A DNA stretch of 7,951 nucleotides. Source: a virus. Lineage: Duplodnaviria > Heunggongvirae > Uroviricota > Caudoviricetes. Each line of letters starts with the position of its first letter. Within the stretch, counting starts at the first letter, position 1. The stretch lies in the IMG/VR virus record IMGVR_UViG_2648501208_000002. One strand, written 5' to 3'. Below are positions 1,662 through 7,951 of the stretch, one piece after another. Position numbers and translations under genes: made by a program. The notes beneath the pieces were generated by a model. That model was not told the origin of the DNA, did not search any database, and saw only the letters and a program-made list of their open reading frames with translations.

Positions 1662-2270
1662 TTATTGCAACAGATTCTGACGGAAATATGGTAACACACG
1701 ACTCCACTTATCATCCTGCCACGGTTGGAATTTTACATGCGCCGTTTCTCTGGCAAGGATTTCTCGCGCCCTGTTGAGTATCCGAGGATATTCTTGTTCG
1801 ATTGAAGTGAATCTACCTGCTTCGCGATGCTCTGCGACCTGAAGAAGGGGCGTAACGTTCTGGCAGGCGGTTAACATCGTATCACTTGCTCGCCATAACC
1901 AGGCGAGTGTGCAAAGTTCGTTATCAGTGAATTGTTTTGTGATTGGGGATTGTTGAACTTCTCGATCGAGAATATCCAGAACCCAGCGGCGGAATTCTTT
2001 GGCCACAGGAGTACGAGCAAACATGGCGATCAAATGGGCTCCGCGAAGGCTAAATACTCGAGACTCCTGCATTCCACGAGGGGTGGTCACTTTGACCACC
2101 CTTGTCATCATATCTGTGAATTCATCTGAGTGCCGAGAGTAAATGCGCTGAACTGCTTTATCGTCCGCATATTCCAGTGCTAAACCAACTTCAGTGGCAG
2201 TAAGCCAAATTCTGTTATTGTGGCAAATCGGGGTAAACGTCGTTTTGTGGAATGCTAATTGAGTAGTCAT
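1662..2270 (-). CDS. BRO-N / phage antirepressor N-terminal-domain-like protein (202 aa)
   Basis: ORF with GAGGTGA 5 nt upstream of the ATG at 2270. The N-terminal region (RIWLTATEVGLALEY...SLRGAHLIAMFARTPVAKEFRRWVLDIL) fits the Bro-N/antirepressor pattern (..DVA..LGY... / ..AK.F..WV) from memory. The C-terminal half is unassigned. Confidence 0.55.
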   Translation of the reverse strand: MTTQLAFHKTTFTPICHNNRIWLTATEVGLALEYADDKAVQRIYSRHSDEFTDMMTRVVKVTTPRGMQESRVFSLRGAHLIAMFARTPVAKEFRRWVLDILDREVQQSPITKQFTDNELCTLAWLWRASDTMLTACQNVTPLLQVAEHREAGRFTSIEQEYPRILNRAREILARETAHVKFQPWQDDKWSRVLPYFRQNLLQ

Positions 2271-2426
2271 AGTATCACCTCATCAGGTTAACCATCACCA
2301 CCAACGACGCCAATCGACTGGTGGTGAACTGTGTAAGGTTGGCGTAACCGGCTACTCAAACCCGGCGCTTCCGAAGAAGCCCTCACACAGCCCACCATAA
2401 TTTGGGCATAGCCGTGCTTAGCGCAC

Positions 2427-2448
2427 AAAAAAACCGCTTAACGCGGTA
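2427..2448 (-). terminator. Putative intrinsic terminator on the minus strand
   Basis: Minus-strand RNA reads ACCGC-GUUAA-GCGGU followed by 7 U (plus-strand A-run at 2427-2433, stem-loop 2434-2447). The stem is short (5 bp) and only moderately GC-rich. Confidence 0.4.
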
Positions 2449-2533
2449 TGCGTTGAGTAGTATCCCGGGACGCCAATCCCGTGTGCCGATTTTGCGGCAA
2501 CGCACAGAATATAGCGCCGGATAAATCATGTCG

Positions 2534-3082: not shown

Positions 3083-4585
3083 ATGACTCAAACTCCTCTA
3101 TTACTTGCAATCATATTTTTATTGGTTGTTCTTGTTCTTTATATAGCTGCAATCAAACGCATCAAAAAAATACAATTAGAATTAAGTGATAGCAATCAAA
3201 AAAATGAAGAATACAAATCTCGCTTTGCAGATTATTTTAATGTAGAAGAAGAATGTAAGAAGCTTATTGAGAAAACAGAGCAAGAATGCTCCATAATAAA
3301 AGAAGAATCCCTAAAAGTAAAAGAAAATGCCAATAATGAACTAACAAACACCATTGAAAAAATGGATGGTATCAATAAACAAATCCAAGAGCTAAGAAGA
3401 ACTTATAAAGAGAAGAAAGAAATATATGATAAACTAGTAAGGCAAATTTCTATTTATTCAGAAGATGTTGAGCTAGCCGAACTAGGATTTTACGAACCTC
3501 ATTTTAATTTTGAAGATTCAGAGCAATTTAAAAACAAAATAAAATCCATCAGGGATGAACAGAAATTAATGCTGCGGGATAAAACCCACTCTGGCGCAGT
3601 ATATTGTACAACCCAATGGACTGTTGAAGGCTCTCGAGCAGAGGGTAAAAAAATGACAGACAGAAATATCAGGCTAACTACTAGAGCATTTAATAATGAA
3701 TGTGATGCTGCAATTAGCAATTGCACGTGGAAAAACATCACTAAAATGGAAGAACGCATCACAAAGGCATTTGAGGCCATAAATAAACTAAACGAGCAAA
3801 ATCACATATATATAAACACTAAATACCTCAATAAAAAACTTGAGGAATTGTGGCTTACCCATGAATATCGTGAGCAAAAACAGAAAGAAAAAGAAGAACA
3901 GGCAGAAATAAGGGCACAAATGAGAGAGGAGGAGCGTGCACAACGAGAAATAGAAAAGGCCATGCAAGACGCAGAGGCAGAAGAGCGCCGTTATAAAAAA
4001 GCAATTGAAGCTGCAAGAAAGGAAATGGAAAAAGTTACTGGTGACATGAAGCAGCGCCTCGAAAATCGCATTGCCGAACTAGAACAGAGTTTGTCGCAGG
4101 CTGAATCAAAGCATCAAAGAGCATTATCCATGGCACAACAAACCAAACAAGGTCATGTTTATATTATTTCGAACATAGGTTCTTTTGGGGAGAATGTTTA
4201 TAAAATAGGCATAACACGACGTCTTGATCCGCAAGACCGTGTAAATGAGCTCGGTGATGCATCTGTTCCTTTTATTTTTGATGTACATGCCATGATTTAT
4301 TCGGAGGACGCTCCATCATTAGAAAAAAAACTACATGATGTCTTCGATAAAAAGAGAGTCAATCTTGTAAATCGTAGAAAAGAGTTTTTCTATGTTACTC
4401 TGGATGAGATCAAAGAAGCTGTTAAAAAACACTCTGATTCAGAAATTGAATTTATTGAGACAGCAGTCGCAAAAGACTTTAATGAGTCATTGGCTATTCG
4501 TAATCATGAAAATAAAAAAAGTGACAACAGCAACTCATCAATTATACCTGAGCGAAAAACCCCAGAGTTTGCAGATGCAATTTAA
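3083..4585 (+). CDS. Membrane-anchored coiled-coil protein with C-terminal GIY-YIG-like (T5orf172/MUG113-type) domain, 500 aa; candidate anti-phage or exclusion protein
   Basis: Longest ORF in the window, on the strand opposite the phage early operon, with AAGGA 9 nt upstream of the ATG. N-terminal hydrophobic helix (LLLAIIFLLVVLVLYIAAI). Residues about 250-340 are K/E/R/Q-rich heptad-like coiled-coil. C-terminal GHVYIISNIGSFGENVYKIGITRRLDPQDRVNELGD...EKKLHDVF...RKEFFYV matches the T5orf172/GIY-YIG-like signature from memory. The middle region (GFYEPHFNFEDS...CTTQWTVEGS) resembles the DUF4041 region that often accompanies T5orf172. Very AT-rich codon usage, by eye roughly 30-35% G+C. Confidence 0.85.
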   Translation: MTQTPLLLAIIFLLVVLVLYIAAIKRIKKIQLELSDSNQKNEEYKSRFADYFNVEEECKKLIEKTEQECSIIKEESLKVKENANNELTNTIEKMDGINKQIQELRRTYKEKKEIYDKLVRQISIYSEDVELAELGFYEPHFNFEDSEQFKNKIKSIRDEQKLMLRDKTHSGAVYCTTQWTVEGSRAEGKKMTDRNIRLTTRAFNNECDAAISNCTWKNITKMEERITKAFEAINKLNEQNHIYINTKYLNKKLEELWLTHEYREQKQKEKEEQAEIRAQMREEERAQREIEKAMQDAEAEERRYKKAIEAARKEMEKVTGDMKQRLENRIAELEQSLSQAESKHQRALSMAQQTKQGHVYIISNIGSFGENVYKIGITRRLDPQDRVNELGDASVPFIFDVHAMIYSEDAPSLEKKLHDVFDKKRVNLVNRRKEFFYVTLDEIKEAVKKHSDSEIEFIETAVAKDFNESLAIRNHENKKSDNSNSSIIPERKTPEFADAI

Positions 4586-4833: not shown

Positions 4834-5136
4834 TCACAGCAAGTTTAAGTTCATATCTCCATACACTGCCAACACTCGTTTCATCGCGGCACTCTGGCGA
4901 CACTCCTTGAAAATCAGATTCGTGCTCACCTTTCCTTCCCGTTCTTCCCTGGTAGCGAACCGGTAATACACCGTTCGCCAGACCTTACCATCAACGACCA
5001 AGATTCCTGCCCGTGCCATTTTAGCCGCAGCCTGATTTATACTGGTTACTGTTGCGCCTGTTACCGCAGCAACGTCCTGCGCACAGAAGCTCTTATGCGT
5101 CCCCAGGTAATGAATAATTGCCTCTTTGCCCGTCAT
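4834..5136 (-). CDS. ren: Ren protein (lambda-type), with a divergent C-terminal tail
   Basis: MTGKEAIIHYLGTH...ATREEREGK...KECRQSAAMKRVLAVYG matches lambda Ren as I recall it. The last 7 residues (DMNLNLL) differ from the lambda ending. The ATGA start/stop overlap with P is as in lambda. Confidence 0.85.
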   Translation of the reverse strand: MTGKEAIIHYLGTHKSFCAQDVAAVTGATVTSINQAAAKMARAGILVVDGKVWRTVYYRFATREEREGKVSTNLIFKECRQSAAMKRVLAVYGDMNLNLL

Positions 5137-5834
5137 ACAGTTGCTCCTTTCAGTCCGAACTTCGCTTTGATTTCTGCGATCTTCGCCAGAGCCTGTGCAC
5201 GATTTAGAGGTCTACCGCCCATGACAGGAAGTTGTTTTACTGGTTCAGGTATCGCCTCACCACGGTTAATTCGCGCGGTCATACAAGTCAGTTCATCGGC
5301 AGCCTTGCGCCGTAATTCCGCATCAGTAAGCGCATTGGCCCGCATGTTCTGATACAGGTTGGTAACCAGCCAGTAGTGCGCGTTTGATTTCCACGGATAA
5401 GACTCTGCATCTGGATACAGGCCACGTTTCCGGCAATACTCGTAAACCATATCAACCAGCTCGCTGGCGTTTGGCAGCCCGGCGGTAACGGATGCTTCTT
5501 CCCGGCACCAGGCAACAAACTGCCCGGGTGATGGCAGGAATGGTCGATTCTGCCGACGGGCTACGCGCATTCCTGCGTCAACCTGTTCCATCGTGGTGAT
5601 CCCGTTTTCCCGGAAAGCCAGAACCCACTGGCGGCGGATTTCGTTCAGTTCGTTCTGGTCCCGGTTAGCCAGGCTCGCCGGGAAAGTTGCCAGTAACTGG
5701 CTGAACACACCATTGATGATCTGCGCTACCTGTTGTACCTGCGGCTTTTCGTCGTACTGTTCCGGCATGTTGTTGGCGATCCGGCGCATCTGCTCACGGT
5801 CAAAGTTAACCATCTGTGCGGCGATGTTTTTCAT
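5133..5834 (-). CDS. P: Replication protein P (lambda-type, DnaB helicase loader)
   Basis: 233 aa, MKNIAAQMVNFDREQMRRIANNMPEQYDEKPQ...AKFGLKGATV, almost identical to lambda P from memory. Confidence 0.95.
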   Translation of the reverse strand: MKNIAAQMVNFDREQMRRIANNMPEQYDEKPQVQQVAQIINGVFSQLLATFPASLANRDQNELNEIRRQWVLAFRENGITTMEQVDAGMRVARRQNRPFLPSPGQFVAWCREEASVTAGLPNASELVDMVYEYCRKRGLYPDAESYPWKSNAHYWLVTNLYQNMRANALTDAELRRKAADELTCMTARINRGEAIPEPVKQLPVMGGRPLNRAQALAKIAEIKAKFGLKGATV

Positions 5835-6726
5835 AAATCCACCCCGTAAATCCAGTCAGTGTTAAAGCCTGTTGCTTGTTACGGTTGATTTCGAGTTGGG
5901 TCCACTTGTCGCGGAGTTTGGCCGGACTTAGCACGTTACCGGACCAGAAGTTGTCCTGGCATGCCCAGCGGAACAGCACGCACATGTCGCGGTGGTTACG
6001 GCCGTCACGTTCACGCATCAGGCGGATATCGTTAGCCCACCCTGCAAAATTCGGTTTTCTGGCTGATGGCGCGATGGTCTTCACCATGTCAAACATCCAC
6101 TCTGCGGCGGTCAGGTCTTCTGCTGTCCCCCACCTGCTGCCGCTCTGAATTGCAGCATCTGGTTTCTCCACAGGAAGATCGTTTTCTGGTTGGTCAGAGG
6201 ATTCGCCAGAATTCTCGGACGAAAAAGGTTTTATATTGTCTTTTGTTAGTTTGTCTTTTGTGTTTACCTGATTCGGGTAAGTGCCTTTACCTGATTTGGG
6301 TAAACTTTTCTTACCTGATTCAGGTAAATTTACCTCTTTCAGGTAAACTTTATTTTTCTTACCTGATTCGGGTAATGTTGACCATTCACTGACCACATTA
6401 TTAATGCCGATATTCCGCCCGCTCTGAATAAAAATCCCACGCTTTACCAGAACACTTTTTGCAGCAGAACACTTGTGCGGCAATATCCCGGTCAACTCGG
6501 AAAGTTGCTCGTTGCTCACCCAATCCAGTTTTTTATTAAAGCCATATGTTTTGCGCATGACAGCCAGGAAGACCAGAAGCTGGTGCTGTGTTAATCCGGC
6601 CAGCATCACAGCTTCCAGCAACTCATTTGCAATGCGCGTATAACCATCATCGAGATCTGCCACGCGCGGCTCCTTTTGTGCCGCATCCGGCACTGGAAAA
6701 TTGAATATCTCAGCAGTGTTTGCCAT
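5806..6726 (-). CDS. O: Replication initiator protein O (lambda-type C-terminal domain; N-terminal iteron-binding domain diverged)
   Basis: The central and C-terminal region (YSSENSGESSDQPENDL...TAEDLTAAEWMFDMVKTIAPSARKPNFAGWANDIRLMRERDGRNHRDMCVLFRWACQDNFWSGNVLSPAKLRDKWTQLEINRNKQQA) is lambda O. I place the start at the internal ATG at 6726 (MANTAEIFNF..., GGGAGG 4 nt upstream), which corresponds to the lambda O N-terminus; the ORF track extends 30 codons further, to 6816. The 3' end overlaps P by 29 nt in an unusual way (see findings). Confidence 0.9.
   Translation of the reverse strand: MANTAEIFNFPVPDAAQKEPRVADLDDGYTRIANELLEAVMLAGLTQHQLLVFLAVMRKTYGFNKKLDWVSNEQLSELTGILPHKCSAAKSVLVKRGIFIQSGRNIGINNVVSEWSTLPESGKKNKVYLKEVNLPESGKKSLPKSGKGTYPNQVNTKDKLTKDNIKPFSSENSGESSDQPENDLPVEKPDAAIQSGSRWGTAEDLTAAEWMFDMVKTIAPSARKPNFAGWANDIRLMRERDGRNHRDMCVLFRWACQDNFWSGNVLSPAKLRDKWTQLEINRNKQQALTLTGFTGWIYEKHRRTDG
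6265..6375. repeat. Replication origin iterons (five 16-bp repeats, consensus TACCTGATTCGGGTAA) inside O
   Basis: Repeats at 6265-6280, 6288-6303, 6312-6327, 6331-6346 (degenerate) and 6360-6375, each with palindromic ends (TACC...GGTA). An AT-rich tract at about 6225-6264 lies on the side expected from lambda ori organisation, given that O is transcribed on the minus strand. Confidence 0.8.
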
Positions 6727-6812
6727 AATTCCTCCCGCAATGAGTGTGTTACGATTTGCACCTGAAAGTCGGTTCTGTTCCCGCAGACCGACTTTCGCCA
6801 TTTCTGAACCTG

Positions 6813-7352
6813 TCATATTGCCCCCAGCATGGTGGTCACCATCGCCATTAATGGACCAGCCAGATCCGGGTCCACACGAAACATCGACACAATACCTTCA
6901 CTCATTTCCTTCAGTTTCTGGTGGCGTGGTGCGTTGAGAATGACAGCCTGTTTTGCCTCACTGAGTTCCTTTTCCATTTCAGCCAACCGAGTCATGAAGC
7001 TATCCTGCTCAACCAGGTAACCGCGATATTCCAGCGGTAGTACCGCCAGAATTGCCGGGGTCAGTTCACGCACGTTATTTCGGTATTTTTCAGAATCGAA
7101 TTTGTTATCGAGGAAGCGGAACAGCTTCTGGCGTGCACGGCTGACATCATCAGGGAAATCGATGGTGCCGTCGCCCTGCTCCCGATACTCATTCACAATG
7201 AGTGCGGCAACGACATCCTGATTATCTACAGCCGACCAGGCGCGGACGGCATCACGGATTTTTTCGTGGCCTGGAGCTTGTTTTGTTTGAGAACGATTTA
7301 TCACCGCAGTCGGAATAAATCCGCTAGTCTGTTGGTATGTAAGTGGTTGCAT
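6813..7352 (-). CDS. YdaT-like protein occupying the cII position (179 aa)
   Basis: ORF with AAGGAG 8 nt upstream of the ATG at 7352, immediately downstream of the cro-like gene. The segment RELTPAILAVLPLEYRGYL resembles the conserved PAILAILP.ELR motif of YdaT-family proteins from memory. Confidence 0.55.
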   Translation of the reverse strand: MQPLTYQQTSGFIPTAVINRSQTKQAPGHEKIRDAVRAWSAVDNQDVVAALIVNEYREQGDGTIDFPDDVSRARQKLFRFLDNKFDSEKYRNNVRELTPAILAVLPLEYRGYLVEQDSFMTRLAEMEKELSEAKQAVILNAPRHQKLKEMSEGIVSMFRVDPDLAGPLMAMVTTMLGAI

Positions 7353-7421: not shown

Positions 7422-7652
7422 TTAAGCTGCGTTCTTTTCGGTGTGTGGAAACAACTTCGGAAGATCCGGGCGAATCTGGTATGCCTTCACAACTCCACCA
7501 GTAGCCGTAACAATGCTGCCGACATGTTCAGGGGATACCTTTGCTTTGTTGTGAAGCCACTTATAGACGGCCTGCTGTGAAACTTCGCAGGCATCGCCTA
7601 GTTTCTTTTGTGAACCAACGATATTGATCGCTGTTTTGATTGCTGGGTTCAT
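7422..7652 (-). CDS. Cro-like HTH regulator of the YdaS family (76 aa)
   Basis: GGAGG 5 nt upstream of the ATG at 7652. Divergent from the repressor gene across an operator region. AINIVGSQKKLGDACEVSQQAVYKWL is an HTH segment, and ...ATGGVVKAYQIRPDL fits the YdaS-type C-terminus. Confidence 0.7.
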   Translation of the reverse strand: MNPAIKTAINIVGSQKKLGDACEVSQQAVYKWLHNKAKVSPEHVGSIVTATGGVVKAYQIRPDLPKLFPHTEKNAA

Positions 7653-7756: not shown

Positions 7757-7951
7757 ATGAAAACAACACTCTCAGAAAGACTTAAAGAAGCCAGATTAGC
7801 GCGAGGCCTTACACAAAAGGCGCTTGGGGATTTGGTCGGGGTTAGCCAAGCTGCTATTCAGAAAATCGAAACAGGGAAAGCTAACCAAACAACTAAAATC
7901 GTGGAGATCGCGAACGCTTTGGGTGTGCGCGCAGAATGGTTATCTTCTGGC
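7757..7951 (+). CDS. cI-type phage repressor, N-terminal HTH (XRE family), partial at the window edge
   Basis: ATG at 7757, translating to MKTTLSERLKEARLARGLTQKALGDLVGVSQAAIQKIETGKANQTTKIVEIANALGVRAEWLSSG..., a classic HTH_XRE repressor N-terminus similar in pattern to the 434/P22 repressors. Open to the end of the window; no obvious Shine-Dalgarno. Confidence 0.75.
   Translation, partial: MKTTLSERLKEARLARGLTQKALGDLVGVSQAAIQKIETGKANQTTKIVEIANALGVRAEWLSSG

Follow-up and report, generated by a model that had tools for sequence, protein, structure and literature searches.

The reading-frame anomaly at the 3' end of the replication gene O in the DNA analysed here (the window, a single stretch of 7,951 nt) very probably stems from a short gap left unresolved in a draft genome assembly and disguised as real sequence during preparation of the window, as the comparison of sequence records suggests. 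The frameshift in O is thus not a real feature of the gene but an assembly error. The window corresponds to the whole of the 7,951-bp contig LJCG01000079.1 from assembly GCA_001421045.1, the draft genome of Escherichia coli SLPE, and a base-by-base comparison over all 7,951 positions found the two to be the same at 7,948 of them and to differ only at 5864-5866, exactly where the frame of O is lost.

Reading frames at the O-P junction and the deposited contig

The features of the junction and its surroundings are as follows:

5806..6816, minus strand: apparent O ORF of the ORF list, 336 aa, ending ...NKQQALTLTGFTGWIYEKHRRTDG*
5867..6816, minus strand: properly sequenced part of O, codons 1-316 plus the GC of Ala317 (...NRNKQQ then GC)
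5864..5866: placeholder bases, written AAA in the window (minus strand: TTT) against NNN in LJCG01000079.1, very probably standing for about 37 nt of unassembled sequence
last 19 codons of 5806..6816, minus strand: LTLTGFTGWIYEKHRRTDG; this tail and the stop 29 nt inside P are, in all probability, products of the gap
5831..5863, minus strand: true 3' end of O in its native frame, NTDWIYGVDL-stop, the same in relatives and annotated there as the end of O
5133..5834, minus strand: replication protein P, 233 aa, intact, start codon 5834-5832, annotated as P in relatives
6259..6375: five iterons of about 22 nt inside O, the presumed origin (repeat family D2 plus inverted repeats I8-I10 and I15-I16)

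Three-frame translation places the end of the O reading frame at ...QQALTLTGFTGWIYEKHRRTDG-stop, 29 nt inside P, and shows the lambda-type ending NTDWIYGVDL-TGA to be encoded in a frame other than that of the ORF 5806..6816, a discordance that a preliminary description of this DNA had pointed out and that is indeed present in the sequence as written. The same description had O stopping 29 nt into P, in agreement with the ORF list, where the apparent O (5806..6816) and P (5133..5834), both on the minus strand, overlap by 29 nt. Across the junction the minus strand reads ...AAC AAG CAA CAG GCT TTA ACA CTG ACT GGA TTT ACG GGG, followed directly by TGG ATT TAT GAA AAA CAT CGC CGC ACA GAT GGT TAA. 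The native ending at 5831..5863 reads AAC ACT GAC TGG ATT TAC GGG GTG GAT TTA TGA, its TGA lying within the ATGA at the start of P; the NTDWIYGVDL tail is out of frame with the rest of O across the N gap and falls into frame once a 37-nt fill is inserted.

The stretch directly preceding the P start (5836-5856, minus strand) contains the 8-nt word TGGATTTA twice, 13 nt apart, and because of this repetition two frames encode W-I-Y, the native one as DWIY and the shifted one as GWIY, which is probably a coincidence. In lambda-type alleles the second copy of the word reads TGGATCTA instead.

In the deposited contig the junction reads CAGGCNNNAACACTG, and the NNN at 5864-5866 are the only Ns that LJCG01000079.1 contains. 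Since the record has N at these positions, the 'TT(T)' of the junction consists of placeholders and not of base calls; called bases have no continuity across the site, the two O flanks being joined by Ns only. A second locus (L016) also carries Ns in its source record (20 of them), which argues against a masking effect peculiar to LJCG01000079.1. The annotation of LJCG01000079.1 has no gene called between P and the ydaT-like gene (5834 to 6813). As a rule, NCBI counts only runs of at least 10 Ns as gaps, so a scaffold gap of three Ns would remain inside a contig. The SLPE genome (LJCG00000000), that of an extraintestinal pathogenic (ExPEC) strain from pig lung, was assembled with SOAPdenovo from Illumina MiSeq paired-end reads into 336 contigs on 152 scaffolds (PMC5466758).

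Intact relatives and the missing nucleotides

What, then, belongs between the two flanks? With a 401-nt query that spans the junction, matches came from 152 phage records, all as full-coverage places, and from 3,246 E. coli records, of which 40 were listed; each of the listed matches, in phages as well as in these 40 of the 3,246 E. coli records, consists of two pieces spanning 435 nt, 34 nt more than the corresponding stretch of the window. When phage PhiR26_1 and the E. coli Z0117EC0116 prophage are aligned with the window, the shortfall lies at 5864-5866, between CAGGC(T) and AACACTG; where the window has its three placeholders, the relatives have 37 nt, TGGCGTGATAGCCGGAAAATCAAAACTCGACCTGACA, between CAGGC and AACACTG. 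The preliminary description had located the anomaly near 5861-5866 and, relative to lambda O, had put the missing sequence at about 34 nt; the alignment with near-identical relatives bears out the place and gives a net shortfall of exactly 34. The O gene of both PhiR26_1 and the Z0117EC0116 prophage measures 1,020 nt and overlaps P at its end by an ATGA, and when the relatives' 37 nt are put in place of the placeholder, the window encodes an O of 339 aa that ends NTDWIYGVDL, stops within the ATGA shared with P and matches the Z0117EC0116 protein exactly.

Outside the gap the intact relatives are 99.97-100% identical to the window. By local BLAST and base-by-base comparison, the Z0117EC0116 prophage has no mismatch to the 2,086 nt that form positions 1-2086 of the window's reverse complement, up to the gap, and shows, over the 5,863 nt on the other side, two substitutions without any indel (M377I in the DUF4041 protein and S90A in the P22AR-like protein), and the isolated phage PhiR26_1 differs by 1 mismatch in 5,250 nt. 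Over 5867..6816, where O was properly sequenced, it is 100% identical to O of both. All ORFs other than O have the lengths found in the relatives, with no further indel in the 7.9 kb, and no signs of decay in the form of extra indels, stops or IS elements were seen in the module.

The truly closest record, NZ_CP098192.1 (99.97%), surfaced in the 401-nt search and by local BLAST and was not among the top 25 of a megablast with the whole window. That megablast against E. coli genomes put records of 99.0% identity first, although NZ_CP098192.1 is 99.97-100% identical over the full window by local BLAST; with long queries, the nearest relative may be lost from view in the megablast ranking.

Where the gap begins and ends also carries information. 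The 12 intact loci compared, which represent six distinct alleles, vary at 19 of 230 columns in and around the site; nine of these 19 fall within the 37-nt gap, whose first and last columns are both variable. At a variable-site density of 8%, the probability that both edges would fall on such sites by chance is roughly estimated at less than about 1%. The E. coli genomes carry up to six copies of the O-P junction region each (401-nt query, among the matches listed). That the gap edges lie on variable sites of O alleles would fit an assembly that stalled where the reads of similar prophages diverge.

On this evidence the following course of events can be proposed. The assembler or gap closer might have stalled because polymorphism in the O-P region is highest here and reads derived from two or more lambdoid prophages, including a putative second prophage of SLPE, would branch at exactly the two edge positions, and the run of three Ns would then underestimate the size of the gap. 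The real SLPE genome would almost certainly have about 37 nt at the site, most simply TGGCGTGATAGCCGGAAAATCAAAACTCGACCTGACA, and with such a fill O would be a normal protein of 339 aa ending ...QQAGVIAGKSKLDLTNTDWIYGVDL, its stop in the ATGA overlap with P. As 37 - 3 = 34 is no multiple of three, reading on through the placeholder accounts for a false frameshift, a false tail of 19 residues and a false O/P overlap of 29 nt.

Short N-run scaffold gaps of SOAPdenovo assemblies resemble this site in several respects: a run of Ns stands between collinear and correct flanks, its length differs from that of the true gap, the region is a polymorphic one present in multiple prophage copies, and a gene is lost or misread in annotation. 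Unlike in an ordinary gap of this kind, the Ns had been replaced by A in the window, which rendered the gap invisible in the raw sequence. Accordingly, of the three causes between which the preliminary description had left the choice, only the sequencing or assembly error stands, in the shape of a 3-N gap in a SOAPdenovo draft contig, and the genuine variant and the decaying prophage find no support. Its wording of a non-triplet indel relative to a lambda-type ancestor does not hold either, the site being an assembly placeholder (NNN) and not an evolutionary event.

Deletion, allele or recoding

Could the shortfall nevertheless be real? That the SLPE prophage underwent a genuine private deletion, with some 34 nt truly gone and the Ns representing ambiguous calls at its junction, is improbable, even though exactly three Ns could in principle be three ambiguous bases at a real deletion junction and the deposited record is indeed 34 nt short. 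It is true that O decays in real prophages: in the complete genome CP043406.1 (locus L005, 265-1241), O is genuinely damaged, its iteron region having changed in net length by about 43 nt, which shifts the frame and leaves O annotated as a fragment of 169 aa, so that real decay of O does occur, at the iterons. Against a deletion in SLPE speaks that the site is an N run in a scaffolded short-read assembly, with flanks that called bases do not join. The polymorphic sites at the gap edges are likewise what is expected where an assembly stalls. Base-by-base comparison with the relatives found no microhomology at the endpoints, and the parental DNA has no significant hairpin (z = 0.00). A search for a local template of the junction returned none, the single match being the junction itself, against 0.74 expected by chance.

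Moreover, the junction is absent from all other records searched, namely 5,426 complete E. coli genomes, 50,697 phage records and three contig collections (among the matches listed). A 65-nt query centred on it had no contiguous match in the 5,426 complete E. coli genomes, the best matches consisting of two pieces with 97% cover; none of the three contig collections (viral, genome and metagenome) contains the 32-mer of the junction, and a variant junction pattern was not found in viral contigs. A query with the right flank matched 2,104 places in E. coli, the best 10 of which all start at query position 3 (94% cover); these 10 of 2,104 are informative about the rest because a record extending across the placeholder bases would rank higher. 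The O product with the frameshifted end, tried with three start codons, has no exact counterpart among the proteins on record. This unique junction had at first been taken for a private event in which 2 nt replaced 36 nt; that reading was rejected, the uniqueness now being explained by the Ns.

A separate case is an O fragment in a protein from an ENA metagenome (P0027), which continues through the O-P junction and enters P in a garbled frame (...NTDWIYGDLDLWKTSPQMVNFDRGG...). It looks like the outcome of indel errors in a noisy assembly, i.e. a further artefactual frame change at the O-P junction.

Had the tail truly been lost, the consequences could be gauged from lambda. There the Oam205 mutation changes TAC to TAG and creates an amber codon at position 295, which leaves 294 of the 299 residues of O, and the efficiency of plating of this mutant on a sup0 host is 0 (PMC6022878), so the tail matters in lambda, a point that lends a true deletion here some weight. 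At the same time lambda O tolerates a C-terminal tag of 76 residues (PMC6022878). Oam205 is a real loss of the extreme C-terminus of O, and the apparent tail change in the window would remove the same residues; the former, however, is a verified point mutation in a phage, and the latter an assembly placeholder. The tail, ...(K/R)(L/I)DL(T/N)NTDWIYGV(D/E/Q)L, is kept in homologues from E. coli and Salmonella and in one that is 62% identical, where a gene of the lambda-P type comes next and overlaps O by 4 nt. The tails of more distant O homologues are different, and downstream of these genes lies a shorter, divergent member of the P family, an IstB/DnaC-like loader or a DnaB-like helicase. For the C-terminal part of intact O, AlphaFold2 predicts a confident helical domain at about residues 58-145, with low confidence for the last ~21 residues; a structure search found no solved structure of O.

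Taken together, Oam205 and the conservation of the tail imply that a true loss would probably disable O, a question that is moot if the site is a gap. Were the deletion real, O would be devoid of its conserved tail and the prophage probably unable to replicate; the new tail would retain the W-I-Y motif by chance, via the 8-nt repeat TGGATTTA, and termination of O would be uncoupled from initiation of P, a natural test of the extent to which the tail and the ATGA coupling are needed.

It is far less probable still that the ending represents a natural, recurrent allele of O with a shorter and different C-terminal tail. Such an allele would find a precedent in the linker before the tail, where the O C-terminus varies most, and in the quite different tails of distant homologues; yet close and moderately distant homologues accompanied by a lambda-type P (about 233-242 aa) all keep ...NTDWIYGV(D/E/Q)L, and the bases that create the ending are Ns. 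The preliminary description had named, as what would overturn its view, that the O frame seen here be the common form in lambdoid phages; in fact no other record searched carries this ending (among the matches listed). Finally, recoding at GCT TTA A through a programmed -1 ribosomal frameshift, which would re-enter the native NTDWIYGVDL frame right after the junction, can be dismissed because the would-be shift site consists of N placeholders and is absent in the relatives; even as written, C TTT AAC does not match an X XXY YYZ slippery heptamer.

The O-P module and its neighbours in the window

With the assembly gap as the preferred explanation of the anomaly, the O-P module is an ordinary lambdoid replication module, essentially that of the isolated and viable phage PhiR26_1. 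O matches Pfam Phage_rep_O (PF04492; 8.4e-34) and P matches Phage_lambda_P (PF06992; 1.7e-61). As befits an O protein of lambda type, the Phage_rep_O domain is N-terminal, iterons lie inside the gene and a loader of the lambda-P type follows downstream. The iteron array at 6259..6375 is untouched by the gap and identical to that of the relatives. With the lambda module the window shares the Phage_rep_O and Phage_lambda_P domains, the iterons in O, the conserved C-terminal domain and, out of frame across the N gap, the tail NTDWIYGVDL, as well as ATGA overlaps, which it has at the ydaT-like/O, O/P (in the native frame) and P/ren boundaries. It differs from lambda in the iteron sequence and in the N-terminal domain of O, and by having YdaS- and YdaT-like genes at the positions of cro and cII, respectively.

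As to the start of O, the ORF reaches 30 codons upstream of the lambda-type start (MANTAEIF...), over 6726-6816 on the minus strand, and the upstream start is the ATG in the ATGA overlap with the ydaT-like gene. The choice of start differs among annotations, O being given as 339, 334 or 309 aa in different records.

The remaining features of the window are listed below:

3083-4585, plus strand: DUF4041/SNIPE protein of 500 aa with a T5orf172/MUG113 domain, encoded on the opposite strand and flanked by ren and the nin region
2317-2402, minus strand: C4 antisense RNA (Rfam, 74.8 bits)
2427-2499, minus strand: isrK Hfq-binding sRNA (Rfam, 58.7 bits)
1662-2270, minus strand: Bro-N/P22AR-C antirepressor-like gene, with the C4 and isrK matches directly upstream
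738-841 and 2671-2774: 104-nt direct repeat, 89% identity (family D1; also an internal BLAST match)
6813-7352, minus strand: gene with a YdaT toxin domain, at the cII position (cII in one record's annotation)
7422-7652, minus strand: YdaS/Cro-like gene, at the cro position (Cro in one record's annotation)

The DUF4041/SNIPE protein is annotated as PD-lambda-1 in phage PhiR26_1, and an exact-product look-up found the form with the private M377I on record in LJCG01000079.1 only. The C4 and isrK RNAs together with the antirepressor-like gene look like an antisense-controlled antirepressor module of the P1/Gifsy type in a lambdoid nin region. The two 104-nt repeats flank a block that comprises a gene for a hypothetical protein of 169 aa, the antirepressor-like gene and the C4/isrK RNAs, and they may be module boundary sequences used in recombination.

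For the biology of the O-P module, these results bring nothing new. Their value is procedural: source Ns shown as A made an assembly gap look like a frameshift with a 'filler' dinucleotide, and what seems to be a conversion of N to A during window preparation can create false indels, frameshifts and motifs in other windows too. Where a claim depends on a handful of bases at an indel or a junction, the source record needs a check for Ns, and ambiguous bases need to be kept or flagged.
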